Positions 5,175 through 22,539 of a stretch of DNA of 50,971 bases are shown here, piece after piece (the stretch's first letter is position 1; the number at the start of each line of letters is the position of its first letter). The stretch is from an uncultured Candidatus Saccharibacteria bacterium. Lineage in GTDB: Bacteria; Patescibacteriota; Saccharimonadia; Saccharimonadales; Saccharimonadaceae. Both the position numbers and the translations under genes were made by a program. The stretch is from positions 1 through 50,971 of the forward strand of contig CAYIQY010000001.1 of NCBI GenBank assembly GCA_964365665.1. The letters run 5' to 3'. The notes beneath the pieces are model-generated. The model did not search any database and was not told the origin of the DNA. It saw only the letters and a program-made list of their open reading frames with translations.

Positions 5175-8018
5175 CTAATCCCCTAGTTGAGCTAGTAATT
5201 TTGATTGAAAATCTAGAGCAAAATCTTCCTGGCCGCGTGGGTCGGAGTTGTAGAATTTCAAACCTAGTGGCTTGATCTCTTTGTAGCCGTGTTTGCTGAT
5301 TTCTTGTAAATACTCTTTATAGTTGCGTTTATCACCTTCTTCGGTATCAAATACTATTTCGCTATTCTCAGCAAGGCTTATGAGAGCTTCTTCCTTCCAG
5401 GCGTCGTGTTCAAGCAAATGACCGCCCTTGGGTTCTATTAAGCACTGGTAGTACATTTCGCCATTCTTTACGTCATTGATTATAAGCATATAATCAGGGC
5501 TAAACCTGCGTCCGTCTTGCGGGCTAAACAGCCAATAGTCTAATTCGTTACGTATTAGGTAAATCTCAGAACCTTCATACTTAGCCTTTAAGTCGTCAAT
5601 CTGGCTCGCGATGTACTTCACGAACCGCTTTTCTTCACTTGTGCCGTAGTTTTCACTGTAAGCGTACCAGTCAGCTGTTTCAACATCGTACTGAAGTTCA
5701 GGGTTGTCATGGTCGCTTTGTGCTTTGGCGCGTTCATCGTTGCTCATAAACACCTTTTCGCCAGTAGCAGGGTTTTCAACCGGGAACGACATCAGGTAGA
5801 TATTCTTTTCCTTGCCAAAAACGGCAGATAATGACACTGGTCGGAATTTATTACTACCTGTAATTAGTGGCATATTTAGGTCAATCGTCTTCCGTACCTC
5901 AGGTAATATTACACCAACAAGTAATTGTAACTTCTCTGTAGGGTTCAGCTGACTTATGCTTTTACCTTCTTCGTACGTATATTTGATTTTGTATAGAGGC
6001 AGATACTTTTCAATCAGTTCATCAACTGTGCTTATACCCTTGATGTGCTCACGTAGGTTATTGAAGCGGAAGAAGTTACCTTCAGCCGATACTAATGCTT
6101 TTCGTATGACAGGCATTGGGAAGTATTCTTCGGTGACGCTTATTTCGTCTACCTTATAGCCGCCAGTAGTCTGGTTCTGCTCAAAGTCAGACAAGCCGGC
6201 AGCACGAAGGTTATATAGACCAGCCTTGATTATCTGATTGAAGGTTGTGTTAACTTCGTCGTCGGTAGTTTTGGTTCGTTTGGTGGTATGGTTCACTAGT
6301 ACGAAGCCTTTTTTGTAAGTATCGCTTTCAAGGAATTTCTGCTTCATCGTGATGGTCTTCTTTTCAATACCTTCGCTGATGATACCTTCGCCCAGCAAAT
6401 CACGTTGAAGGTTCTCTAGGAACGTACCCGTCTTCACAAAGTGGTAGACAAAGGTTTCTAGCACTCGCCCCCTGTCATACGGGTCGTTATCAAACTTCCG
6501 CTTGTACTTATCAAACTCAAGCCCACGACCACCAAAGAGGTCAATGGTTGAACTATCTTCATCTCGTTTGTATGAGCGTGGCAACTCGTATGGGTTGTAC
6601 CTTGCTCCACGACCAATCAGCTGTATGTCTTGCAACGATACTTTTTTGGCTTCAGATATGTCGAAGTGAATAATGTCGTACAGCCCAAGTACGTCCCAAC
6701 CCTCGTTCAACGCATTAACCGAAAAGATTGCACGGATTGAATTTCGTGGCGTGTCTAGTTGTGTGAGCAGTTCGGCTTTTTCTTTTTTCTGACTGTTGTA
6801 TATCAGCGTATTATCGTGGGCAAAACTAGTTCGTATCTCTGCCGTAAACGCCCTTAGTCCGTCTAGGTCGCCCTGTGATACCAGCCCAGCTTTGGGCGTT
6901 CTGAGCCACGCAAACATATCTGCCAGTATCTCGTGTTCACGGTTTTTGTTCTCGCGGCTCAGTTCGTGCAGACGGCTCAAGTCCTCTGGTCGTAGTGAGC
7001 CGATCACACTATCGAAGAACTTGCGGTCTTCTTCACTCTGAGCAATTTTAACCGACTTTATTAGCACGATAGGGCTTATAGAAACGTTCATCTCATGTTC
7101 TGCCAGCAGACGGCGATACTCGCTGAGGGCAACAGCATTCACTATCAGTAGACGTTTCTGGTCTTCTGTGTGCACCTCTTGGTTAAACAGGAATTTCACG
7201 TCCTTGCTGTACCCGTCTTTATTGAACTCTAGGAAGTCGTAGCGATGAACCAACTTGTCGGTGTACTTAGTGTGAATAGCCTCGTTTGCTAGGTCTACTG
7301 TGGCTGTGAACTCAAGGAGTATATTTTCCTCTCGTGCTTTGATAGCCGACATTACGGCTGTTTCCCAGTTCAGTATCTCCTCTTGGTCTTTTTTGTTCTT
7401 ACTACGGGTGTCTACGTTCAGCCTATGGGCTTCATCAGCTATAATAACCATGTTATTGTTCACAAAGTCCTCAGCTGTCAGTCCGTTCTCGCGGTCTTCT
7501 CTGAGGCGGTTATATAGCAGTGAGGTACTAAAGAACATGAAGTTGATACTATTGCGTCCAGCGTCAGCCACGCTACCAACAGATTTTACGTCCACATTCT
7601 GCCCGTTTATCTTGATACCCTTCGGATTGAACAGGTACTTTTCAAACTTGTAGTCCGTGAAGTTCCTTACGGCTTGGTCTTTTATCTGTATTTGGTGTAC
7701 TAGGAACAAGAAGTTGCGATAACCCTTTTCGTACAGATACAACACCACAGCAGCCATCACGAGGGTTTTACCCGTACCAGTTGCCATATTGAACAGCAGG
7801 TGTTTGGCACTAGCCCTGTCATGGTTATACAACCATATGAAGTGCTTTAGGGCCGTCTGCTGATATTCACGTAGTTGCTTGGTCGGGTGTAGGTTGTCTG
7901 TGATGTACTCTGGCACAGTGTAGGACTTCGCCCACGCTTGATAGTCAGGGTTGTTCTCTATCTTGTTGAACAGGAAGTCAGCAAGGGTTTCGCTAATTTT
8001 AGTTTTCTGTCGCGCCAT
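5175..8018 (-). CDS. res: Type III restriction enzyme, Res subunit (SF2 helicase plus C-terminal PD-(D/E)xK nuclease)
   Basis: 947 aa. Has Walker A NMATGTGKT, DEAH box IIADEAHRL, and C-terminal SPDYMLI...IEPKG. Overlaps mod by 20 nt. Confidence 0.9.
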   Translation of the reverse strand: MARQKTKISETLADFLFNKIENNPDYQAWAKSYTVPEYITDNLHPTKQLREYQQTALKHFIWLYNHDRASAKHLLFNMATGTGKTLVMAAVVLYLYEKGYRNFLFLVHQIQIKDQAVRNFTDYKFEKYLFNPKGIKINGQNVDVKSVGSVADAGRNSINFMFFSTSLLYNRLREDRENGLTAEDFVNNNMVIIADEAHRLNVDTRSKNKKDQEEILNWETAVMSAIKAREENILLEFTATVDLANEAIHTKYTDKLVHRYDFLEFNKDGYSKDVKFLFNQEVHTEDQKRLLIVNAVALSEYRRLLAEHEMNVSISPIVLIKSVKIAQSEEDRKFFDSVIGSLRPEDLSRLHELSRENKNREHEILADMFAWLRTPKAGLVSQGDLDGLRAFTAEIRTSFAHDNTLIYNSQKKEKAELLTQLDTPRNSIRAIFSVNALNEGWDVLGLYDIIHFDISEAKKVSLQDIQLIGRGARYNPYELPRSYKRDEDSSTIDLFGGRGLEFDKYKRKFDNDPYDRGRVLETFVYHFVKTGTFLENLQRDLLGEGIISEGIEKKTITMKQKFLESDTYKKGFVLVNHTTKRTKTTDDEVNTTFNQIIKAGLYNLRAAGLSDFEQNQTTGGYKVDEISVTEEYFPMPVIRKALVSAEGNFFRFNNLREHIKGISTVDELIEKYLPLYKIKYTYEEGKSISQLNPTEKLQLLVGVILPEVRKTIDLNMPLITGSNKFRPVSLSAVFGKEKNIYLMSFPVENPATGEKVFMSNDERAKAQSDHDNPELQYDVETADWYAYSENYGTSEEKRFVKYIASQIDDLKAKYEGSEIYLIRNELDYWLFSPQDGRRFSPDYMLIINDVKNGEMYYQCLIEPKGGHLLEHDAWKEEALISLAENSEIVFDTEEGDKRNYKEYLQEISKHGYKEIKPLGLKFYNSDPRGQEDFALDFQSKLLAQLGD

Positions 8019-9729
8019 AGAACTTGTCCGTTAAAGCTTTTTCATCTTCTGATACCTTGTGTCGTGCGTCGCTCATATCTGCGTAATTGAGGTACAATTG
8101 GTTTTCGTCCAGTACATCTGCCAGAGCCTCTTTGCGACCATCTAGGTCTAATTTGCGGAAGTCCTCGTCCTTTTCAAAGGCGTGACGGTCAAACCAGAAC
8201 TTCAAGAAGGCGTTGTTACGCATATCTACATACAGGTCTTCTAGCTCGCTCAGGCTTGTGGCTTCCATAATGCGTTCAACGTATTCTTGGTTGTACTTCT
8301 TGAGTTCAAAGTATACGAACGAACCGCCGCCGTTCCAGCCAACGTGGGTGCTTATACCGCCCTGTTCGCCAGCAACAACTTTTTTCAAGCGTTCCTTCGC
8401 CACTTCCTCAATATAGTCCATCTGCTCAATGCCAACCCAACGGCGATTCATCTTGTGAGCTACTGCTGAGGTAGTGCCAGAGCCAAGATGATAGTCTAGT
8501 ACAATATCACCTTCGCTAGAGCCCAGGGAGATTATCGTTTCTAGTAAGCCCTCTGGCTTTGGAAAATCAAATATCTTCTTGTTGCTAAAAAGTGCTTTTA
8601 TCTCAAGCGTTCCTCTGTCCGATAGCACTTCCTTGTTGTTCCAAATACTTGAGCGTGAACTTGTTTTTTCACGATACTTCTTGACGATTTGGTAGCCATT
8701 CTTTGCTTCCTTACCGAATATTATCTTATTGAGTTTTGGGCCAGCTGTTTCTTTGCTTTGTCGCCAGACTGTCTGTATGTCGCCAGACTTTTGCGGAATC
8801 ACCTCAATCCAGCCATGTTGCGGTTCAAGGCTCAACTCATAAAGACCATTTTCGTCTTTGTTATTTGGGTTCAAGTAAAAGGGGTAAAACAAGTTGGGAC
8901 GATTATCGACGTTGAAACTGGCGTTCCTATTGCGAAGTTCATAAAGGTCAAAACCACCCTCGCTATCGCTGTGCTTGAACTGCTTATCGTCATCAACTGC
9001 TTGGTGTAGTTCATATTCTGCAGTCTTAGAGTACATCAAGATAAACTCGTGTGTTTTTGATAAGGCTTCATAACTTCTGGTACGAGCGTCGGTTGCAACA
9101 GTTACAGTAGAGACAAAGTTTGAAGGCTGAAAAACCTCGTCCATAAGTACCTTGAGGTATGCCTGTTCATTATCATCGCAACTAACAAAAATAACGCCAT
9201 CCTCAGTCAGTAACTCACGAGCAACTTCTAAGCGGTTCTTCATGAACGCTAACCACGCCGAGTGATTGAAGCTGTCATTGTAGCGAAAACCATCGTTACC
9301 CGTATTATAAGGTGGGTCAATGTAGATAAGCTTTACCTGACCAGCCAGACGCTCTCGCAAAGTATAAAGCGCCAGTAGGTTATTGCCTTTGATGAGCAGG
9401 TTCTGGCTGAGGTTGCCTTCGCCATCAAAGAACTGAACATCATTGCTCGCAGTCAGCGACCTCTCACCCTCTTTATCAACGTAACTAAAGTCTGTCAGTA
9501 CCTTCGGTTCTTCTAGGGTGTCTATATCCTTGCTATCAACCTCTAGGTGTAGGAAGCGTTCTTCACGTCCGACATCTTCCTTGCTCATGCCAGCTTCAAG
9601 AATAGTGTCCTTGAAAGGAAAGTTTAGCACTACTCCAGTATCATTTTTGATAAAACCACCATTACTATACAGCCCAATTTTGTTGCTGTATTTTGTGTAT
9701 CGGCCTTTTCGTAATGAGTTATCAGACAT
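7999..9729 (-). CDS. mod: Type III DNA methyltransferase, Mod subunit (N6-adenine, beta class)
   Basis: 576 aa. The DPPYN motif (LIYIDPPYNTG) precedes the AdoMet motif LDYHLGSGTT. A GAGAGG SD is present upstream. Confidence 0.9.
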   Translation of the reverse strand: MSDNSLRKGRYTKYSNKIGLYSNGGFIKNDTGVVLNFPFKDTILEAGMSKEDVGREERFLHLEVDSKDIDTLEEPKVLTDFSYVDKEGERSLTASNDVQFFDGEGNLSQNLLIKGNNLLALYTLRERLAGQVKLIYIDPPYNTGNDGFRYNDSFNHSAWLAFMKNRLEVARELLTEDGVIFVSCDDNEQAYLKVLMDEVFQPSNFVSTVTVATDARTRSYEALSKTHEFILMYSKTAEYELHQAVDDDKQFKHSDSEGGFDLYELRNRNASFNVDNRPNLFYPFYLNPNNKDENGLYELSLEPQHGWIEVIPQKSGDIQTVWRQSKETAGPKLNKIIFGKEAKNGYQIVKKYREKTSSRSSIWNNKEVLSDRGTLEIKALFSNKKIFDFPKPEGLLETIISLGSSEGDIVLDYHLGSGTTSAVAHKMNRRWVGIEQMDYIEEVAKERLKKVVAGEQGGISTHVGWNGGGSFVYFELKKYNQEYVERIMEATSLSELEDLYVDMRNNAFLKFWFDRHAFEKDEDFRKLDLDGRKEALADVLDENQLYLNYADMSDARHKVSEDEKALTDKFYGATEN

Positions 9730-14712: not shown

Positions 14713-15498
14713 TTATGGCCTTAATGCGCCAGCAAAGACTTGCCAGGCTAAAGCGCTCTTGGCCACCAGGCTTAGAATGACGTAAACCTTTTCACCGTAG
14801 AGATAATCACGCCATTTGCCAACCTTTTTGTACTGCAAGATCATATTGACCGCAAAGCAATTAAAAAAGAGGAAGATACTGGCATAAATATAGTAAACGA
14901 AAGTTGGGATATCGCCGGATCCATAAGATTCGCCCGCCCAGAAGTAGATACCGATAACTACCCATGGCAAAATACCAGCCATCGCGCCGACATTATATGC
15001 AAGCCAACTAACCTTTGCGCGTCCCTGGTTATAGATTTCCATCGCCAGACCCATGAGGTTCATGATAGCCGTCAAGCCAAATATCATTACCAGCGAACCA
15101 AGATCGTAAATCCCTGATAGCAGTGCGATACCGATCATCATAGTACTGGCACTTAACGCATACTCGATCCACCGCACTTTATTGATACCGTGTTTTAAAT
15201 TAGCTTCATAACGTCGACGGTATATGGTAGCCACAAACAAATGCGCGATAGCGCTAAGCAGGAAAAAGACAATGACAATATACGCTAGGTTAATATCGAA
15301 TATATTGTGGCTTGCCGATACTAAAACGGGCTTATCTAATGTTGACGATGCGTCAAGTGTCAGATGGTTGACTGTTACGGCCCATATACCGCGACTCGGA
15401 TCACTCAAAATGAAAACAGCCAGGGCCTGCAACGCATGCAGCCCCGCCATAATCAGGTTGAACCTTACTAAACTTTTGGTTGTTATTTTGTTACTCAT
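14713..15498 (-). CDS. heliorhodopsin
   Basis: 261 aa, 7 TM. From memory it is collinear with heliorhodopsin 48C12: LHALQALAV (His23 equivalent), SAIAHLF (His80 equivalent), RWIEYALSAS (counterion Glu107 equivalent), FLFFN, QYKKVGKW, and YVILSLVAKSALAWQVFAG carrying the Schiff-base Lys (K247, nt 14758-14760). Confidence 0.85.
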   Translation of the reverse strand: MSNKITTKSLVRFNLIMAGLHALQALAVFILSDPSRGIWAVTVNHLTLDASSTLDKPVLVSASHNIFDINLAYIVIVFFLLSAIAHLFVATIYRRRYEANLKHGINKVRWIEYALSASTMMIGIALLSGIYDLGSLVMIFGLTAIMNLMGLAMEIYNQGRAKVSWLAYNVGAMAGILPWVVIGIYFWAGESYGSGDIPTFVYYIYASIFLFFNCFAVNMILQYKKVGKWRDYLYGEKVYVILSLVAKSALAWQVFAGALRP

Positions 15499-15882: not shown

Positions 15883-15957
15883 TGGCTGGGGCGGAGGGAT
15901 TCGAACCCCCGAATGTCGGCACCAAAAGCCGATGCCTTACCACTTGGCGACGCCCCA
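15883..15957 (-). tRNA. tRNA-Gln (anticodon UUG), CCA encoded
   Basis: The reverse complement is UGGGGCGUCGCCAAGUGGUAAGGCAUCGGCUUUUGGUGCCGACAUUCGGGGGUUCGAAUCCCUCCGCCCCAGCCA. It folds as a cloverleaf with a U1-A72 pair, anticodon stem UCGGC/GCCGA, loop UUUUGGU and a TPsiC loop UUCGAAU. From memory it is nearly collinear with E. coli tRNA-Gln. Confidence 0.9.
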
Positions 15958-15996: not shown

Positions 15997-17526
15997 CTAG
16001 AAAGAATCGCTATCTTCTCGTCCGTACTTTTCTATAATTTCGTCTGTATTTTTGTATATTTGGTCTCTGAACATTCCAGTAATTTCTTTTCTATAATTTG
16101 CGTTTTTTATTTTCGCATAAGCTTCCTCTACTTGAGCGCGGAGTTCCTCTGGGCTATAGGATGGGATGGGCTTTTTCTCCATCATAGTCGCAACAGCCGG
16201 GGTATGACAGTTATCAAGTGCTAAGAATAATTCACTCAGTAACTCAACCCTTTCGGAATCATCCTCTGTGTACGCTAATATGGAATCAACCGCATTACCA
16301 AAGACAGTATTCATACTCACGCTTCTTTCATCCAATTCCTCGACTAGTTTGTACGTCTCTGCATCATCAAGGGAGTTATCGATCCTGTGAAAAAGTCCTA
16401 GATGGTACTGAAGCTCCTCTGTAAAGTCACCCATTGCCTGACCTAACACTTGAATAGGATCGCCGTAAAGCGGAGTATCCGACTCATCAATCTCGTAGTA
16501 TTTCTGTACTTGCTTTATTTCATCGTCAAAGTTATTTGCGAAGATGTCGATAACTTTTTTGGCGAATCGACGCGGTGGTTTGCGATAGTAGTGCTCGGTG
16601 ATTTGTTCGCGCAATTCTTCAGGAAGGCGGCTTGCGTCTTCGCGCTCAAGGATAGCATTGGTGAGATCCAACTGGTTTGATTCTACCAATTTAAACAATC
16701 CTACAATCGCATCAATTCTTTGATCTTCATCCAGAGATTGATCGTTGTTAATCTGGTTGATACAATTTGCCGCGGTTGCAGTTATTGCTGCCTGTGTCTG
16801 ATCAAGCCGCTCCAGAACTATTGGCTTGCTTTTACCGGCGGTACCCTGCGCTAGCTGTTCGAGCCATTTTCGCTGATTCCCTAAACGGTTATTGAGTTTA
16901 TTCATCAGTGTGGTGAGTTCACTATCTTCTAGGTCTTTTACGCTATCTTCGAAGCTTTCTATGTCTGTATGAATAGGTTCACCTAGCAGTACGGCCAGAT
17001 CATTCGAAAAATCATCACGGAATAGCGCTGCAACCGTTTTGGGGAACTTGCCCTTATCCTCAAGGTATTTCTCGCCCAATGCTAGCCATAATCTCTCTGG
17101 TGAATACGTACCATTGTCGAATCCTGCACTTTCAAAAATATCTTTTTGAGAGGCTGTCCCGCTAATGAATAGATCTGATACAAGTGCCAATTGATCGTCC
17201 ATGTCATGATCTGGTGATTTTATCACCCGATCAGCGCACGCTTCGACTGCTTCGGCTAAAAAGTCATTTGATTTATCAATTACGTCAATTGTAATCCCTG
17301 ATATTTCCATTTTGTGCATAGTAAGGTTATTGTTGCGAATAAGTTGTGTGTAGTAGAAATTGTCGAGGGTTTTTATGACCATTTTGCGCTCGAGATTCGA
17401 TTTTTTCGCAATCTGAGCAAAGCCTACTTCATCTTCAGACGGTAGTACATATTGATCATGTGCAACTTCCATCCTTCTAATGTGCATGTTGGCAATTACT
17501 TTAAGGCTGAATAGATGAACTGTCAA
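15997..17526 (-). CDS. acidic helical repeat protein, function unknown
   Basis: 509-aa ORF with three roughly 45-aa internal repeats that begin SPE(E/R)L. The start codon is uncertain (Met14 and Met19 are alternatives). Confidence 0.5.
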   Translation of the reverse strand: MTVHLFSLKVIANMHIRRMEVAHDQYVLPSEDEVGFAQIAKKSNLERKMVIKTLDNFYYTQLIRNNNLTMHKMEISGITIDVIDKSNDFLAEAVEACADRVIKSPDHDMDDQLALVSDLFISGTASQKDIFESAGFDNGTYSPERLWLALGEKYLEDKGKFPKTVAALFRDDFSNDLAVLLGEPIHTDIESFEDSVKDLEDSELTTLMNKLNNRLGNQRKWLEQLAQGTAGKSKPIVLERLDQTQAAITATAANCINQINNDQSLDEDQRIDAIVGLFKLVESNQLDLTNAILEREDASRLPEELREQITEHYYRKPPRRFAKKVIDIFANNFDDEIKQVQKYYEIDESDTPLYGDPIQVLGQAMGDFTEELQYHLGLFHRIDNSLDDAETYKLVEELDERSVSMNTVFGNAVDSILAYTEDDSERVELLSELFLALDNCHTPAVATMMEKKPIPSYSPEELRAQVEEAYAKIKNANYRKEITGMFRDQIYKNTDEIIEKYGREDSDSF

Positions 17527-17545: not shown

Positions 17546-18214
17546 ATGTTAGATCATCACATCCAACGCGAAATTGTCTACGCTCTCGCTTTTAGCAAAG
17601 GGATGCGGTTCAGCGAGTTAAAACCGGACATGTTGGAAAACAAGGCATTTGATTATCATCTGAAAAAGGTAATCCTGGCTGGATATGTGATCAAAAACGA
17701 CAATGGAACGTATAGTCTGACTGCCGAGGGCAAGCGGGTTGGCAAAGGGGCGCTGAAAAAACAAAGCCGGCTGATTGACCGCGCCTACTCCACCCTCCTT
17801 CTCGCAATCCGGAGGCCGGAAGACGGAACGTGGTTATTAGTGAAGCGCAAGGCTCAACCGCTACTTGGGTTGACGGGATTTATGAACGCGCAGCCGATAG
17901 CTACTGAGGACATTGTGCAAACAGCCGCGAAAGTATGCCGGGAGCAAACGGGACTTTCCGGCGCGTTCGTAGTCCATGGTCACGGGTATTTCCGTATCAC
18001 TCGGGCTGGAGAATTGGAAAGCTTTATCCATTTTACTCTCCTGACGTGCAACGAAATTCAGGGAGAGTTGCATCAAAACAGTGAACTAGCGGAATACTAC
18101 TGGGATACGGATCCCGATTGGCAGGCACCGGATATGCTACCGAACATGCAAATACTTCACAAAATGTTGCAAGCTCGCGCGGGAACCTTTGTTGAGAAAA
18201 CGTTTGATATTTAA
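17546..18214 (+). CDS. wHTH plus Nudix-like domain protein
   Basis: The N-terminal 65 aa read as a winged helix (IVYALAFSKGMRFSELK...YHLKKVILAGYVIKNDNGTYSLTAEG). The C-terminal part has a degenerate Nudix-box-like stretch (G..NAQPIATEDIVQTAAKVCREQTGL). TGtTATACT lies 6 nt before the ATG. Confidence 0.45.
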   Translation: MLDHHIQREIVYALAFSKGMRFSELKPDMLENKAFDYHLKKVILAGYVIKNDNGTYSLTAEGKRVGKGALKKQSRLIDRAYSTLLLAIRRPEDGTWLLVKRKAQPLLGLTGFMNAQPIATEDIVQTAAKVCREQTGLSGAFVVHGHGYFRITRAGELESFIHFTLLTCNEIQGELHQNSELAEYYWDTDPDWQAPDMLPNMQILHKMLQARAGTFVEKTFDI

Positions 18215-18320
18215 TTGGTCGTTTGGTGGTTGTGTGCATGATAGCCTCCTATATGGTTAACTTCTAAATCTAGTATGATCCGAGTTGCTTAACGAAACAG
18301 TGAACAGTTTTTCACTAACT

Positions 18321-19070
18321 TTAACTGGGGTTGCCAAAGTCAGATTGTGCCTGTACGAGCGCATCATGAGCTTGATTGGTTGACGGCGCGTTATGTTTCC
18401 ACGCAATGGATAGTGGACTTTGTGGATCAGCCAGCTGAGCCACCGAAGCGTGGACGCCGTTTATTTCGTGGCTGAACCTTGATGATTCCAGAAGATCCAT
18501 AGATGTCCACATAACAATATCTTGAATTTCTCTTTCACTCATGCCCTTCGGAGCATTGCCGAGCGGTAGGGCTGCGATTGCAAGAGCGGTTGTCCCCATT
18601 TGTCTTCCTAATTGACGCTCTATGCGCGCTGTATTGAGTTCTTTTTGGTGTGCCATTGCCAATCGGTGGCCAAGTGATGCTGCACGATTGAGCCCGTTGC
18701 GGACTTTTATCATCAAGCCAGAACGAGTCTCGCGCCACTCTGCTTCGTCATCGGCAAGTTCGGGTAATTTCAGCCGTCGTCGCATGACTTCGGGACTGTC
18801 ATGGGCATAGATATACCAGGCGGCGTTCATCAGTGCACTCGCGGTGCGTCGGTTGATGAAGTTTTGGTCTTCTGCATTATCGACCGGATAATTATAAATG
18901 GCCGAGGCTACATCGAGCCCAGTTGCCTGCTGTTCGAGCACGAGTGTTCCAGCTGGCAATTGACGCCTCCGTTCTGCTTCTGCTGCGTCCCGTGTACGTG
19001 GTGGCACGTAGTCGACACCCTCTTGCAAGTGTCTGGTTGGTAAATCGAAATCTTTTCTTCCTTTATTCAT
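18321..19070 (-). CDS. hypothetical protein (about 250 aa)
   Basis: The tracked ORF starts at 19160, but Met31 (19070) follows a GGGA box, and the upstream part is an A+T-rich leader carrying a palindrome. No JAMM or other motif recognised. Confidence 0.5.
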   Translation of the reverse strand: MNKGRKDFDLPTRHLQEGVDYVPPRTRDAAEAERRRQLPAGTLVLEQQATGLDVASAIYNYPVDNAEDQNFINRRTASALMNAAWYIYAHDSPEVMRRRLKLPELADDEAEWRETRSGLMIKVRNGLNRAASLGHRLAMAHQKELNTARIERQLGRQMGTTALAIAALPLGNAPKGMSEREIQDIVMWTSMDLLESSRFSHEINGVHASVAQLADPQSPLSIAWKHNAPSTNQAHDALVQAQSDFGNPS

Positions 19071-19173
19071 ATCCCTACTATGCCTGGGATGCGAAACAAA
19101 ATCAGTGAATAATTTTTCACTAAAATTTTGGCATAAATAAAACTCCACATAGTGGAGCAAAAAAGTTGTGCGG

Positions 19174-19230
19174 GAGGCGGTGAACGAGAGTGGAGGGCGC
19201 CGTTGCCCGGTCCACTTCGTTCACCGCCTC
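19174..19230 (-). terminator. long G+C-rich hairpin terminator after the Ubl gene
   Basis: GAGGCGGTGAACGAGAGTGGA(19174-19194) pairs with TCCACTTCGTTCACCGCCTC(19211-19230), about 20 bp with 1 bulge. A T6 run follows within 10 nt on the minus strand. Confidence 0.65.
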
Positions 19231-19276
19231 ATTGTCACAGACAGCCCGACGCTGGACGCCCTACCGCTCCGGCCGG

Positions 19277-19507
19277 TTAGCCGTTCTCGGGCTTGTACGC
19301 CACGGTGACCGCCGCACCCTCCGGCACGATGGTGTCCTCGGTGGCCGGACGGCCGCCGCCGACAGGTACGTGACCGGCCGGGATCGTGGCGCCCAGTTCC
19401 TTGAGGTAGCCGCCGACCGTGGCGCCGACCTTGTAGTCCAGCGTCTCCGGTCGACCGGGGAGGCCAAATCGGATCTTGCTTGGTGCGGGTGCGAGTGCTG
19501 TACTCAT
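19277..19507 (-). CDS. ThiS/MoaD-like beta-grasp ubiquitin-like protein (76 aa) ending in Asn-Gly
   Basis: KIRFGLPGRPETLDYKVGATVGGYLKELG...VPVGGGRPATEDTIVPEGAAVTVAYKPENG follows the ThiS/MoaD pattern with a terminal Gly (nt 19280-19282). An AAGGAG SD lies 6 nt before the ATG at 19507. Very G+C-rich. Confidence 0.6.
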   Translation of the reverse strand: MSTALAPAPSKIRFGLPGRPETLDYKVGATVGGYLKELGATIPAGHVPVGGGRPATEDTIVPEGAAVTVAYKPENG

Positions 19508-19519
19508 GAACATCTCCTT

Positions 19520-20185
19520 TTAGGGGATTTGAACGACGGGAGTTGCCCCGCCGGGTGGTGCTACGATCGACAGATCTCCGTGGAGGATTTCTGCCGGTCG
19601 CCTCCCTCGTGCGAACGAGGTGAGGTTCTTGAGAATGAGACCGTCGAGCGTCAGCGCCGTATGAAAATCACTGCGGACAGTGCACGGTGCTTCAGCAGCC
19701 TCATTACTGGGGTACATCCAGTCCTCGTATAAACTGATTTGCGATGGGCTGGACGGATTGAGGGTGTATAGATGAAGTACGTCACCACCAATCCGTCCAT
19801 CCATGTACAAATCTACGAAGGTATTGAACTTCACCAGCTCCCAGATCGCCTTGCGGCTATCCATCGAGTCGACTCCACTGATCACGACGCCGCTGAGTTC
19901 CAGTTGGCTGGTCTCTTCGACGCGCATGACGTGGGGAACGACAATGGTGTCCAGTTCTTCACGCTCTGCAAAGGCGGCCAGTGCCTCTACCTTTGATGTG
20001 CCTACATCGCTGCGGCGGAACAGTTGGGTATGGATGTTGTGTTCTTCCACGACATCATCGTCGTAGAAGTGGATCTTGGGGAGGTCGTTCTTCATCAGAA
20101 AGAATGCCAACCAAGAACCAATACCTCCACAACCTACGACGTGCACTTCCCGGACCCATCGAGACGGGTCGAAAATGTGCGTCAT
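19520..20185 (-). CDS. minimal E1-like (ThiF/MoeB/HesA family) adenylyltransferase
   Basis: 221 aa. Rossmann loop VVGCGGIGS, then YDDDVVEEHNIHTQLF (equivalent to DxDxVexSNLnRQ with the Arg position changed), GTSKVEA and SGVDSMDSR. No CxxC zinc pairs or rhodanese domain. The start overlaps the upstream stop as ATGA. Confidence 0.7.
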   Translation of the reverse strand: MTHIFDPSRWVREVHVVGCGGIGSWLAFFLMKNDLPKIHFYDDDVVEEHNIHTQLFRRSDVGTSKVEALAAFAEREELDTIVVPHVMRVEETSQLELSGVVISGVDSMDSRKAIWELVKFNTFVDLYMDGRIGGDVLHLYTLNPSSPSQISLYEDWMYPSNEAAEAPCTVRSDFHTALTLDGLILKNLTSFARGRRPAEILHGDLSIVAPPGGATPVVQIP

Positions 20186-20955
20186 GACTCACCTTCTTTC
20201 TTATGGATCTTGAACGCTTTGGGTATCTCTTGACGTTTTCCGAGCTTGATCGTCGACAGGTACATGATCATGGCCTGGATTCCGTGCAGGAAATCTCGAG
20301 ATTTGGCGTAGTTGTTCACTGTGCCATAGTTGGTTCCGAAGCAGAAACTGTCATCGTCCCAATTATGAAACTCGGTGACGCTGGATGCCCTGGTTAGGCC
20401 ACTGACGACACGTTTAACTCTGTAAGAATCCCTATCGCCGCTTCCTTTCGTCAGGTGTCGAGCACTCTCTACGTTTCCGAAGAAAATGTCCCATGTACCC
20501 AAATGATAGGTCACGTCTTTGTGTTCTGTCGTTGCAACGACCGTAAAGGCTATAACGTCAGGTGTTTCCGCTCTCACTGCGATGACCTGCGGGAGGCAGA
20601 GGATATCCTCCAGCTCCTGTATTGCCATCTTCCGATCTTCCACTTGCTGTTTAGCCTGTTCGTTAACGCTAGCGAGCTTTTGCTTTGCCTTGTTGCGATC
20701 CGCCTGGAGGTTTTCAAGTAGTGCGACATCGCTTTCCTCGCCGCTCTTCAGCAGTTCGCCCAACTGTTTGCAACGGTCGTTGAGGCACGCAATGTCCGCT
20801 TCGAGCTTTTGCCGCTGTTCCTGGATCATTTGCTTGTCAGGGTACTGTTTGATGCGCCAAAAGCAATCAGCAACATCATAGTCATCGTGCAAGTTCCTTC
20901 GTACTGCTCGCATCGCGACGATAGCGAGGTTACTGCCTAGATTGTAAAGTGACAT
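20182..20955 (-). CDS. coiled-coil protein with candidate E2/UBC-like C-terminal domain
   Basis: A GAGAGGA SD lies before the ATG at 20955 (the track starts it at 20997). About 90 aa of heptad-like Q/E/K-rich sequence are followed by four predicted beta strands, then FHNWDDDSFCFG (His211 at nt 20365-20367, Cys219 at nt 20341-20343) and a helix. This resembles the HPN...C layout of E2 enzymes. The assignment is inference only. Confidence 0.35.
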   Translation of the reverse strand: MSLYNLGSNLAIVAMRAVRRNLHDDYDVADCFWRIKQYPDKQMIQEQRQKLEADIACLNDRCKQLGELLKSGEESDVALLENLQADRNKAKQKLASVNEQAKQQVEDRKMAIQELEDILCLPQVIAVRAETPDVIAFTVVATTEHKDVTYHLGTWDIFFGNVESARHLTKGSGDRDSYRVKRVVSGLTRASSVTEFHNWDDDSFCFGTNYGTVNNYAKSRDFLHGIQAMIMYLSTIKLGKRQEIPKAFKIHKKEGES

Positions 20956-21074
20956 CTCGCCACATCCTCTCGGGTTGTCTGTGATGTGAATTTGCAAGGA
21001 ACCTCTAAGGTATTACTCCACGGGCTCACTTGTTGTGCCAATCTTATTCCATCTTGTGTAGTATTGTCAATAAT

Positions 21075-21101
21075 AAAACGCTTCTGCGTAAGAAGCGTTT
21101 T
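21075..21101 (-). terminator. rho-independent terminator (bidirectional shape)
   Basis: AAAACGCTTCT/AGAAGCGTTTT 11-bp stem followed on the minus strand by a TTTTATTATT tail. Lies downstream of the GreA-like gene. Confidence 0.75.
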
Positions 21102-21127
21102 ACCTGTGAGTGAGAGCGGTCAGTGTG

Positions 21128-21595
21128 CTATGAAATGCGTACGAGTTGCAACTGGGTTCTGCGAAGATCGTTACCCCAGTTGATCGTATCGGTGATCGTT
21201 TTGCCAATCAGGTTCTGCCCTAATGGGCTTTTGATGCTGATGCGACCGTCGCTAGGATCGGCTTCGATGGTGTCCACCACCGTGTATACAAACCGGCGAC
21301 CGTTTTTATCGATGAGTTCGACTACCGAACCGATAGCCACTCGCAGTGCATCGCGTTTGCGTGGGAACAGCTGGGCGCTGTCCATCAGTGTCTGCTTGTC
21401 GGCTAGTTCAGACTCGATCAATTCGAGTTGTGCTAGCTTTTCAACACGTGCTAGTCGTTCGTCGTGGCCGTCGCTTTTATCCTGTTCGTGTAATTCGAAA
21501 ATAGTTTTGCGCCGATCACGTTCAAGTAAGCTAATCGACTTCTTTAACTCTTTCATACCTTTTTTGCTCAAATAAATTGTTTCGGTGGTGTTCAC
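21128..21595 (-). CDS. GreA/GreB-family transcription elongation factor-like protein
   Basis: 155 aa. N-terminal coiled coil plus C-terminal GSVVEL......ISIKSPLGQNLIGKTITD (GreA C-domain signature). GTG start with an AAGGAGGG SD. The usual acidic tip motif is not obvious. Confidence 0.65.
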   Translation of the reverse strand: MNTTETIYLSKKGMKELKKSISLLERDRRKTIFELHEQDKSDGHDERLARVEKLAQLELIESELADKQTLMDSAQLFPRKRDALRVAIGSVVELIDKNGRRFVYTVVDTIEADPSDGRISIKSPLGQNLIGKTITDTINWGNDLRRTQLQLVRIS

Positions 21596-21858
21596 AATAT
21601 GATCCCTCCTTCTTTCTCTTTTTACCGACTTATGCCGGTCATGGTTTCCAGTATGCTACCTTTGCCTGAGAAAACAGTGAGAATTCTCACTTTCTGCCAG
21701 AATTCGTCTCAGAACCCTTTTCATTTGCGAAAACTATGTTCTGTCGATGCCAGTGGGCAGTTCTCGTGACAAGACGTATGTGAATACGTCGCGAAGCGAA
21801 ACTGGACACTGGCGCGGCAGGCATAGATTGCAGCAGAAAGGGGGTTCTGTGACGAGTT

Positions 21859-22539
21859 CTATCTTTTGTATGTAATTAGTTTGCCATCACTGAGTTGATA
21901 GGTGTGATCGGTGCGTCCGGCAATATCCAAATCGTGCGTGACGACAATGATTGTCGTGTTGTGGCTACGTGACAAATCGTGCAATAGGTCAAATATTGCC
22001 TGTCCTGTGTCACTGTCCAAATTACCGGTCGGTTCGTCAGCCAGGATCAGTGCCGGTTGGTTTGCAAGGGCGCGGGCAATGCTGACACGCTGCTGCTGGC
22101 CACCAGACAGCTTGCCTGGCCGTCGGCGTGCCTGATCGTCATCAATGCCTACTGATTCCAATAGATCCAATGCACGCTCCTTGCGCTCGCCTGATGGAGC
22201 GCCGCCGAATTCCAATGCCAACATAACGTTTTCAAGTGCCGTCAGATTAGGAATGAGGTTGTATTGCTGAAAGACAAAACCGATTTTGCGTGATCGATAG
22301 GCGGTTTGTTTGCTACCCGACAGGCGCGTGATATCTTGTTTGTCGACCATGATCTCGCCTTTGGTCGGTTGGTCAAGTGCGCCTAGCTGGCTGAGCAGAG
22401 TTGATTTGCCGCTACCCGATTTGCCGATAATGCTGACGAATTGACCCGTTTTGACGGTGAAGTTGATATCGTTCAATGCGTGGACGTCACCGCCGGGCGC
22501 GTGGAACGTTTTTGTGAGGTTAGTTACTTGTATAGACAT
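21859..22539 (-). CDS. ABC transporter ATP-binding protein (MacB/LolD type)
   Basis: Walker A GKSGSGKST, signature LSGGQQQRV, Walker B ILADEPT. Confidence 0.9.
   Translation of the reverse strand: MSIQVTNLTKTFHAPGGDVHALNDINFTVKTGQFVSIIGKSGSGKSTLLSQLGALDQPTKGEIMVDKQDITRLSGSKQTAYRSRKIGFVFQQYNLIPNLTALENVMLALEFGGAPSGERKERALDLLESVGIDDDQARRRPGKLSGGQQQRVSIARALANQPALILADEPTGNLDSDTGQAIFDLLHDLSRSHNTTIIVVTHDLDIAGRTDHTYQLSDGKLITYKR

Follow-up and report, generated by a model that had tools for sequence, protein, structure and literature searches.

Protein conjugation and a part in antiphage immunity have been demonstrated for type II CBASS, Bil and Bub only in recent years, and each of these families brought new chemistry. 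As a kind, prokaryotic operons encoding E1, E2 and ubiquitin-like (Ubl) proteins are already known and have been described as classes 6a-6e (Iyer et al., 2006; PMC1779556). Bil operons encode a Ubl, an E2, a JAB peptidase and an E1, with no E3; their E2 is thought to choose targets directly, and the known outcome is the tagging of a phage tail protein (PMC11601596). Here we describe a cassette of three genes on the minus strand of a 50,971-nucleotide (nt) stretch of contig CAYIQY010000001.1, from an uncultured Candidatus Saccharibacteria bacterium (the whole stretch analysed is hereafter the window, and coordinates are positions in it). The three genes probably make up a single, self-contained transcription unit for a minimal cascade of ubiquitin-like protein conjugation, consisting of a predicted E2-like protein behind a coiled coil, a single-domain E1 and a small beta-grasp tag. 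The unit has the following features.

21041-21070, minus strand: promoter-like site, by consensus match only; TTGACA (21065-21070), an 18-nt spacer and TAAGAT (21041-21046)
20182-20955, minus strand: gene 1, predicted E2-like protein of 257 amino acids (aa); ATG behind AGAGGA
20626-20844, minus strand: gene 1 residues about 38-110, a helical region rich in Gln, Glu and Lys, probably a coiled coil
20185-20625, minus strand: gene 1 residues 111-257, predicted UBC-like (E2-like) domain
20341-20343, minus strand: codon of Cys205 (in F-C-F-G), candidate catalytic cysteine of the E2-like domain
19520-20185, minus strand: gene 2, predicted minimal single-domain E1/ThiF-type adenylase of 221 aa; overlaps gene 1 by ATGA
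19682-19684, minus strand: codon of Cys168 of the E1 (in 'APC'), candidate thioester site
19277-19507, minus strand: gene 3, predicted ubiquitin-like beta-grasp protein of 76 aa; starts 6 nt after AAGGAG and ends ...KPENG-stop
19159-19230, minus strand: terminator, a 20-bp G+C-rich hairpin (19174-19230) followed by a T6 run (19159-19164)

The listing of open reading frames (ORFs) and direct reading of the letters agree on a compact unit at 19159-21070, in which a promoter-like site precedes three closely spaced genes and a strong hairpin closes the series. An earlier note on this DNA, made by a model from the letters alone, had reported the TTGACA box, the three minus-strand genes, the ATGA overlap and a 12-nt gap between genes 2 and 3, and all of these are where it placed them; gene 3 has its own Shine-Dalgarno sequence, and its Gly76 codon occupies 19280-19282. 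The note's strong terminator also stood up to folding, with -68.7 kcal/mol over a 136-nt stretch, a z-score of -4.7 and none of 200 shuffles equally stable. A simple terminator scan missed this hairpin because its T6 run begins 9 nt past the stem. The promoter-like site matches the consensus at 10 of 12 positions and ranks first of five sites in 18000-22000, where 3.0 are expected by chance, and taken alone it is only suggestive of a true promoter; it starts straight after an 11-bp hairpin (21075-21101) that closes the upstream greA-like gene. The frame of gene 1 is open back to a TTG at 20997, which would give 271 aa, and the earlier note numbered its residues from there.

Gene 2 matches the Pfam ThiF family (PF00899) with 65.2 bits against a cut-off of 28.1 (E 6.4e-18), and its adenylation site is intact: across 32 diverse E1s of the family, G18, G20, G23, D42, D44, N50, Q54, K65, D106, R111, R131, P144 and C168 are invariant. 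The same alignment holds no CxxC pairs, which bears out the description of gene 2 as a stripped-down ThiF/E1 enzyme; that description needs one amendment, in that Cys168 is conserved in 32 of 32 sequences, from Saccharibacteria to phage-like contigs, and is the only invariant cysteine, making it a candidate for the E1 thioester site. Among NCBIfam models the top matches are to ThiF, the best reaching 51 bits against 159, and none comes near an equivalog cut-off (PRTRC_ThiF, 40.1 bits against 144.75; UbaA, the SAMP E1, 40.6 against 450; MoeB models, 20-33 against 266-449). In PADLOC, a comparison the earlier note had proposed, the best matches are Cap2 'E1-E2' models, covering residues 12-120 only, and BilD reaches 31.7 bits over residues 13-125 only, so that these models match the nucleotide-binding part alone. 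A profile of the E1 family searched against the Protein Data Bank (PDB) placed UBA3 first (68.8 bits), followed by UBA1, ThiF (64), UBA5 (60) and MoeB (51.6), with MccB and PaaA also among the matches; a profile of the C-terminal half, aimed at placing Cys168 relative to the ThiF/MoeB crossover loop, found no match there. Searches of plasmids by tblastn with the E1 returned generic MoeB/ThiF genes and no PRTRC. These scores point to a minimal E1-type adenylase with no specific tie to the thiamin or molybdopterin enzymes.

The product of gene 3 has no match in Pfam, NCBIfam, PADLOC or PHROGs, and its assignment comes from its relatives and from a structure model. Its alignment has the ThiS/MoaD pattern, and a family profile retrieved 158 proteins, many carrying Pfam ThiS (PF02597). 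Homologues begin with MST or MSA and end with NG-stop, and the small ORF that follows the E1 gene in 42 related cellular loci mostly ends in NG or GG at the stop or at most two residues from it, Asn-Gly being the ending in the Saccharibacteria clade and GG that in other clades. The AlphaFold2 (AF2) model, though of low confidence, has the order beta-beta-alpha-beta-beta-beta, and its fold matches are to beta-grasp proteins only, led by TtuB (probability 1.0, TM-score 0.58-0.66) and including Mth1743, ThiS-like proteins and ubiquitin-like domains. Profile, fold matches and conserved terminal glycine together support gene 3 as a predicted ThiS/MoaD/TtuB-like beta-grasp protein ending in Gly; the earlier note had already called it ThiS/MoaD-like.

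Gene 3 also differs in composition, at about 68-70% G+C against 50-54% for genes 1 and 2 and a window mean of 47%. This contrast, which had been remarked on before, is real and is not evidence of a recent mosaic. In all six close loci (window 19277-19507; L001 2865-3101; L003 2583-2810; L004 6680-6916; L005 5030-5263; L007 6691-6951) the Ubl gene has 65-72% G+C and 78-91% G+C at third codon positions (GC3), as compared with a GC3 of 58-78% in the adjoining E2-like and E1 genes, and the difference holds whatever the G+C of the host DNA. We accordingly rejected recent horizontal acquisition of the tag gene; its high G+C is a conserved trait of the clade. A 180-aa ORF on the plus strand (19190-19732) runs opposite the Ubl and E1 genes; it probably owes its existence to the local high G+C and does not represent a gene.

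Gene 1 matched no family in Pfam, NCBIfam, PADLOC or PHROGs beyond weak coiled-coil noise. The weak matches at its N-terminus are all to coiled-coil segments (the N-terminal arm of SerRS at E 0.002, EnvC, SMC-related proteins and Uso1), and on their strength the helical Gln/Glu/Lys-rich region is probably the coiled coil that the earlier note had seen in it; no transmembrane (TM) segment is predicted in the window protein. A word-indexed search of 5.8e9 proteins returned only three homologues of the gene 1 protein, at 40-53% identity, and a profile of residues 111-257 gathered 137 representative clusters among 1.84e9 proteins, 121 of them with the whole E2-like domain, nearly always at the C-terminus. 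Forty-six of these are short and, with one exception, lack predicted TM segments, like the window protein; the other 75 are long, and 63 of those carry two or three predicted TM segments. In the proteins P0153, P0194 and P0225 the domain is N-terminal and followed by some 200-240 more residues, and P0153 and P0225 contain a second HMMER-matched stretch that may be a degenerate second copy of the domain.

Cys205, which the earlier note had numbered Cys219 and proposed as catalytic, is invariant in all 121 members, within F-C-(F/L)-G, and Tyr150 and Gly153 are nearly invariant. The histidine that it had paired with this cysteine (His211, here His197) fared less well: His197-Asn198 is kept only in the closest clade, and the majority motif of the family is Y-P-x-Y-R. 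Structure prediction, which had been suggested as a check for a UBC fold, returned a confident model of residues 111-257 from a 68-sequence alignment, with a predicted local distance difference test score (pLDDT) of 95.6 and a predicted template-modelling score of 0.89. Its helices (H) and strands (E) run H2-9, E14-21, E24-35, E38-50, E68-75, H97-108, H112-123 and H128-137, that is, a helix, four strands, a long loop with the cysteine and three helices, which is the UBC arrangement, and Cys205 lies in the loop immediately before helix 97-108. In a Foldseek search of the PDB the top matches are the UEV domains of Tsg101/Vps23 (E 0.083, TM-score 0.48-0.49), so that similarity of the modelled fold to the UBC superfamily is moderate; the best structural matches in BFVD are unnamed viral proteins of 474-542 aa (probability 0.96-1.0).

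Phage relatives connect the domain to E2s in sequence. The canonical E2 active-site signature is HPN(I/V)...G.(I/V)CL, and distant members of the family that stand beside JAMM and E1 genes on phage-like and IMG/VR contigs carry a close counterpart, HPH(V/I)-x4-6-G-x-x-C-(L/W)-G-(N/D). When aligned by hhalign with four eukaryotic E2s, whose sequences were entered by hand and may be inexact, the viral set reached a probability of 90.5% (E 1.3e-6, 101 columns) and the combined set with the window protein as first row 79.7% (E 1.5e-5, 112 columns); in every run the Cys205 column paired with Cys85 of UBE2D2, with helices and strands in register. None of the viral E2-like proteins with HPH(V/I)..G..C(L/W)G was recognised by Pfam or named in PHROGs, and Pfam UQ_con and Prok-E2 found no match in 68 cellular and 10 viral E2-like members, the HPH-bearing ones included. 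A PDB sequence search with the E2-like profile returned no E2 and a single chance match to an adhesin, and tblastn of gene 1 against 50,697 phage records gave no match. Sequence homology of gene 1 to E2s is thus supported only transitively, via the phage relatives. The E2-like order that the earlier note had perceived, the riskiest part of its reading, finds converging support in the UBC-like model, the invariant cysteine and this phage-mediated link, and its equation of 'HN' with HPN does not hold: His197 aligns with the residue after HPN and not with its histidine. Several accepted bacterial E2-like families likewise lack the HPN histidine (PMC1779556). We conclude that gene 1 carries a divergent UBC/E2-like domain, predicted from sequence and model to have retained the catalytic cysteine and lost HPN.

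The arrangement itself is conserved. On independent contigs (L001, L003, L004, L005/L014 and L046) the genes come in the order of the window and match it in length: L001 and L003 carry all three genes in order, L004 and L005 (the latter from a Saccharibacteria metagenome-assembled genome, MAG) repeat the three-gene layout, and L002, which is short and breaks off within the E1 gene, has the first two genes in the same order. About 130 relatives of the E1, of 210-245 aa, were retrieved, the named ones from Saccharibacteria, Saccharimonadales and Patescibacteria. With the E1 alignment as query, 42 cellular loci were found among 185,579 species-representative genomes, which makes the system rare in cells; most belong to Saccharibacteria/Saccharimonadia, the others to MAGs of Parcubacteria, Nomurabacteria, Methylomirabilota, Chloroflexi, Rubrobacter, Gammaproteobacteria, Nitrospinae and Calditrichota. 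Clustering of the neighbouring ORFs of these 42 loci, a survey that the earlier note had called for, turned up four recurrent genes and no others, namely those for the E2-like protein, the E1, JAMM and the Ubl; a fifth partner, an E3 and a sulfur enzyme were not found, and no sulfur-transfer or cofactor genes were seen near the related loci examined.

The recurrence of a JAMM gene changes how the cassette is to be described. L007 and L008 have four genes. One encodes a 335-aa protein that joins TM segments and a coiled coil to the same C-terminal domain; the others are for a JAMM peptidase of 205 aa (motif HSHVNMPAYMSGID), the E1 and an 86-aa tag ending NG. Of the 42 cellular loci, 25 show the order E2-like, JAMM, E1, and one more locus with JAMM, L050, has no detected E2-like match; loci free of JAMM occur in the window's clade (L014, L046), L055 and a Methylomirabilota clade. 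In the window no JAMM-motif ORF of real size occurs anywhere in the 51 kb, and the scanned ORFs (Pfam, PADLOC) include no cyclase, sulfur-transfer, thiamin or molybdopterin genes, as the earlier note had said of the vicinity. Its label 'without a deubiquitinase' is accordingly true of the window and not of the family: absence of JAMM is the minority state, and a cassette with no peptidase describes a subclade.

Viruses carry most of the family. At least 404 viral contigs in IMG/VR, searched with the E1 alignment, encode a related short E1, and among the best 80 of these loci a JAMM gene stands beside the E1 in 76 and a detectable E2-like gene in 45. Isolated phages carry the E1 as well, namely Flavobacterium phage FpV4 (KT876724, L013) and its relatives and 29 Bacteroides phage records. 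In FpV4 the E1 is accompanied by a JAMM protein, by a protein of 420 aa that contains HSHL...FCIG, and by a Ubl joined to the front of a 289-aa protein, with KSGG internally; all proteins of this module fall in PHROGs of unknown function, and the window E1 matches phrog_15670. Two further phage-like contigs offer side observations, a 365-aa protein resembling several beta-grasp repeats that adjoins an SMC-like ATPase (L012, 8450-9547) and another small paralogue of the E2-like protein (FVCLGNM), encoded upstream of the main module in L011 (1894-2649). From the ThiF membership, the beta-grasp tag, the UBC-like fold, the invariant cysteine and the phage link to E2s, we therefore regard the reading of the trio as E2-like, E1-like and ubiquitin-like as largely right.

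These parts suggest how such a cascade might run. The 76-aa tag would be made with its reactive C-terminal glycine already exposed, so that no processing peptidase would be needed. The 221-aa ThiF-type E1, probably a homodimer like ThiF and MoeB, would bind ATP and adenylate Gly76, and the acyl group would then pass, possibly via Cys168 of the E1, to Cys205 of the UBC-like domain to form a thioester. Held by its N-terminal coiled coil, the gene 1 protein may then attach the tag by itself, without a separate E3, to an amino group on the target protein. Because the window's clade has lost the JAMM gene that most relatives carry, tagging there may be irreversible, or it may be reversed by something encoded elsewhere. 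As to biological role, we lean toward phage-host or inter-genome conflict, for phages carry most of the family, and the genes for the E2-like protein and the tag have diverged much more quickly than those around them. This is no more than a guess, and housekeeping regulation in Saccharibacteria is a possible alternative.

Several observations weigh against a conjugation cascade and keep our confidence in it short of firm. Adenylation, the thioesters, the protein targets and the E1 dimer are all inferred. In gene 1, the HPN motif is absent from the window protein (TEFHNW) and the equivalent columns are degenerate in the clade; Foldseek found nothing in the PDB below E 1e-3 for the domain; and the cellular E2-like clade alone, aligned with the same hand-entered E2 sequences, gave a hhalign probability below 1% (E 0.07, 107 columns). 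In gene 2, another residue stands in place of the canonical Arg in the E1 'NLxRQ' motif. The AF2 model of the tag is of low confidence (pLDDT 59), probably because most of the input homologues came from a distant clade, and TtuB, the protein it matches best in structure, serves chiefly as a sulfur carrier. Finally, no target, E3 or peptidase is encoded nearby, and a defence role has no contextual support in the window, where the nearest recognised defence system is a type III restriction-modification (R-M) pair some 10 kb off.

The alternative that survives best is a sulfur-carrier system, in which the E1 would adenylate the beta-grasp protein for conversion to a C-terminal thiocarboxylate, as in ThiS/ThiF, MoaD/MoeB and TtuB/TtuC, and the conserved cysteine in gene 1 would serve for persulfide relay or as a scaffold. 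The E1 is small and single-domain like ThiF and MoeB and finds its top NCBIfam matches among ThiF models, the tag has TtuB as its best fold match, and tag relatives have the Pfam ThiS domain and received the name 'sulfur carrier protein ThiS' from annotation pipelines. Set against this kinship, scores in the ThiF and MoeB equivalog models fall far under their cut-offs (51 against 159 bits; 42 against 275), and with the E1 profile eukaryotic E1s score no lower than ThiF and above MoeB, so that the specific ThiS/ThiF or MoaD/MoeB affinity for which the earlier note had suggested looking is not found in the E1/Ubl pair. Genes for rhodanese, cysteine desulfurase, ThiG/ThiH, MoaE or TtuA-like proteins are not recurrent in the 42 cellular loci and were not seen in annotated neighbourhoods, whereas most relatives possess a JAMM isopeptidase and a UBC-like protein, for which sulfur pathways have no need, and the family abounds in phages. 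We consider a sulfur carrier improbable, if the most serious of the competitors.

Abundance in phages suggests a second alternative, that the cassette is a remnant or domesticated phage module whose job belonged to the life cycle of a phage (for instance maturation of virion proteins, cross-linking or takeover of the host) and which has no independent cellular function here. Related short E1s, accompanied by JAMM and E2-like genes, on at least 404 IMG/VR contigs, the match to phrog_15670 and the presence of the E1 in isolated phages (FpV4, with the full module around it, and the Bacteroides phages) would all fit such an origin, as would the cassette's G+C above that of its surroundings, and loss of JAMM could be decay. 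The window speaks otherwise. It is ordinary chromosome (genes for DnaB, CysS, Tgt, an AI-2E transporter, GreA, an ABC transporter, a two-component system and heliorhodopsin, and tRNA-Gln), no recognisable phage gene or integrase occurs among the ORFs scanned, all three cassette ORFs are intact, and the catalytic residues are conserved in at least six independent loci. Moreover, the greA-like gene (21128-21595, minus strand) lies directly upstream of the cassette here and likewise in L046 (2544-3041), a Saccharimonadales MAG in which histidine kinase, greA, E2-like (284 aa), E1 and Ubl (...KLPKNG) genes have the same arrangement. Between the two, greA is 55% identical, the E1 36% and the E2-like protein 27%, and a shared position beside greA combined with a cassette only 27-36% identical implies long residence. 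A phage remnant therefore seems to us unlikely, marginally more so than a sulfur carrier. A third proposal, that the E1 adenylates the C-terminus of a small protein in the manner of MccB or PaaA for toxin or antibiotic making, with gene 1 an unrelated accessory, we regard as very unlikely, for although MccB and PaaA are among the PDB matches of the E1, and MccB acts on a C-terminal Asn where the Saccharibacteria tags end Asn-Gly, tags of other clades end GG, the substrate is a folded beta-grasp protein and not a short peptide, no export or immunity genes recur nearby, and gene 1 has a UBC-like fold and an invariant cysteine.

The surroundings of the proposed conjugation cassette also bear on its history. 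A neighbour encoding a 222-aa protein (window 17546-18214, plus strand; L004 177-845; L003 3-449), whose N-terminus matches DUF7347 weakly and below cut-off and which has no further known domain, is found no more than a few kb from the cassette in three related contigs and is 80-83% identical between them, as against 40-51% for the E2-like protein, 51-57% for the Ubl and 56-71% for the E1 between the window and L003/L004. Taken with the greA synteny, these identities thus indicate that the cassette is an old resident that has evolved faster than its surroundings. The 279-aa ORF at 18321-19160 (minus strand) was considered as a cassette member and rejected, since the terminator separates it from the three genes and other cassettes have no counterpart close by; like the 509-aa ORF at 15997-17526 (minus strand), which also lacks such a counterpart, it has no Pfam or PADLOC match. 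A defence-island context was rejected as well. The only defence system recognised among the window ORFs scanned is the complete type III R-M pair at 5175-9729 (minus strand; res, 947 aa; mod, 576 aa), about 10 kb away, and defence models found no match in the cassette's immediate neighbours. Elsewhere in the window a heliorhodopsin gene (14713-15498, minus strand; Pfam PF18761, E 1.4e-88) adjoins a gene for a DUF378-like small membrane protein, assigned by eye, and tRNA-Gln (15883-15957).

If the conjugation reading is correct, the family would add an E2-like domain that lies outside Pfam, NCBIfam, PADLOC and PHROGs, a very small stand-alone E1 that may define the minimum for Ubl activation and transfer, and a variant with no peptidase at all. 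Its concentration in Saccharibacteria and other Patescibacteria places it in symbiotic bacteria whose tiny genomes keep few non-essential systems, and its far greater abundance in phage genomes raises the little-explored possibility that phages run ubiquitin-like conjugation. As its parts are small, soluble and separate, the cassette should be convenient for reconstitution and structural work. We tentatively advance a wider proposal, decidedly more doubtful than the cascade itself: the cassette may be the simplest natural thioester E1-E2-Ubl cascade yet (a 221-aa E1, an HPN-less E2 and a 76-aa tag, with neither E3 nor deubiquitinase), resident and fast-evolving in Saccharibacteria, and the cellular tip of a large, unrecognised and mainly phage-encoded family with many membrane-anchored E2s, in which phages would tag their own or host proteins and bacteria of the candidate phyla radiation would have captured modules for defence or regulation. 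We found no prior account of the family in the literature on PRTRC or on ubiquitin-like systems of Saccharibacteria, Patescibacteria or phages, in which subscription papers were thinly covered, so that an earlier description is possible.

Among described systems, class 6d, which we take to overlap the PRTRC cassette of NCBIfam, is one of the closest. Class 6d shares with the family the same four functional parts in one compact mobile operon, a small stand-alone E1 and a stand-alone Ubl, and an E2-like protein that has kept its cysteine and lost the classical histidine (PMC1779556). The window cassette differs in having no JAB, no alpha-helical fifth protein and no ParB, for which no candidate was found among the window ORFs scanned, and the family differs in carrying its E2-like domain C-terminal to a coiled coil, or to TM segments and a coiled coil. 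PRTRC, which the earlier note had named as a possible identity of the trio, is not borne out by its models, in that the window E1 scores 40.1 bits against 144.75 for PRTRC_ThiF and the PRTRC A, B and C models match neither gene 1 nor gene 3 nor the relatives scanned, save for a 13-bit PRTRC_A match at the JAMM motif of FpV4.

The antiphage systems resemble the cassette in part. Bil likewise combines Ubl, E2 and E1 with no E3, but it has a JAB that the window lacks, and its E1, BilD, consists of tandem adenylation domains and a Cys domain, whereas the window E1 is a single domain of 221 aa; the PADLOC models of BilA, BilB and BilC find no match in the cassette, and that of BilD only the nucleotide-binding part. 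Bub (6E/DUF6527) is likewise a bacterial E1/E2/Ubl operon, Type II Bub typically has no JAB peptidase, and its compact E1, which has no catalytic-Cys domain, resembles that of the window. Bub, however, forms Ser/Tyr oxyesters with an E1 and E2 that have no conserved cysteine, where the present family has an invariant cysteine in both enzymes, and it uses a DUF6527 serine protease, of which no match was found in the window proteins scanned, and E2-E1 or Ubl-E2 fusions, where the window has separate genes. Type II CBASS shares E1 and E2 chemistry and a JAB partner (Cap3) with the family, and its Cap2 models are the best PADLOC matches of the window E1; yet Cap2 is an E2-E1 fusion that conjugates the CD-NTase, with no free Ubl, in contrast to the separate genes and free Ubl here, and no CBASS cyclase or effector was found in the window ORFs scanned or in related loci.

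A last likeness is to TtuB/TtuC of Thermus and SAMP/UbaA of archaea, where a small ThiS-like tag ending in Gly is paired with a small E1 and doubles as a protein modifier that a JAMM peptidase reverses. E2s are missing from those systems, which are tied to sulfur transfer, whereas here a UBC-like protein with an invariant cysteine is consistently linked, and the UbaA model gives the window E1 40.6 bits where its cut-off is 450. Thiamin and molybdopterin pathways are represented neither by an equivalog-level ThiF or MoeB match nor by pathway genes in the window ORFs scanned or recurring in the 42 loci. Judged by its sequence, then, the cassette is not PRTRC/6d, Bil, Bub, CBASS or a cofactor pathway and fails the defining features of each, in keeping with the earlier note's view that its layout is distinct from Cap2/Cap3, Bil and Bub. 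The novelty proposed there for the conjugation system is to be understood at the level of the family and of the variant, both of which appear to be new, within a kind of E1/E2/Ubl operon that was already known.

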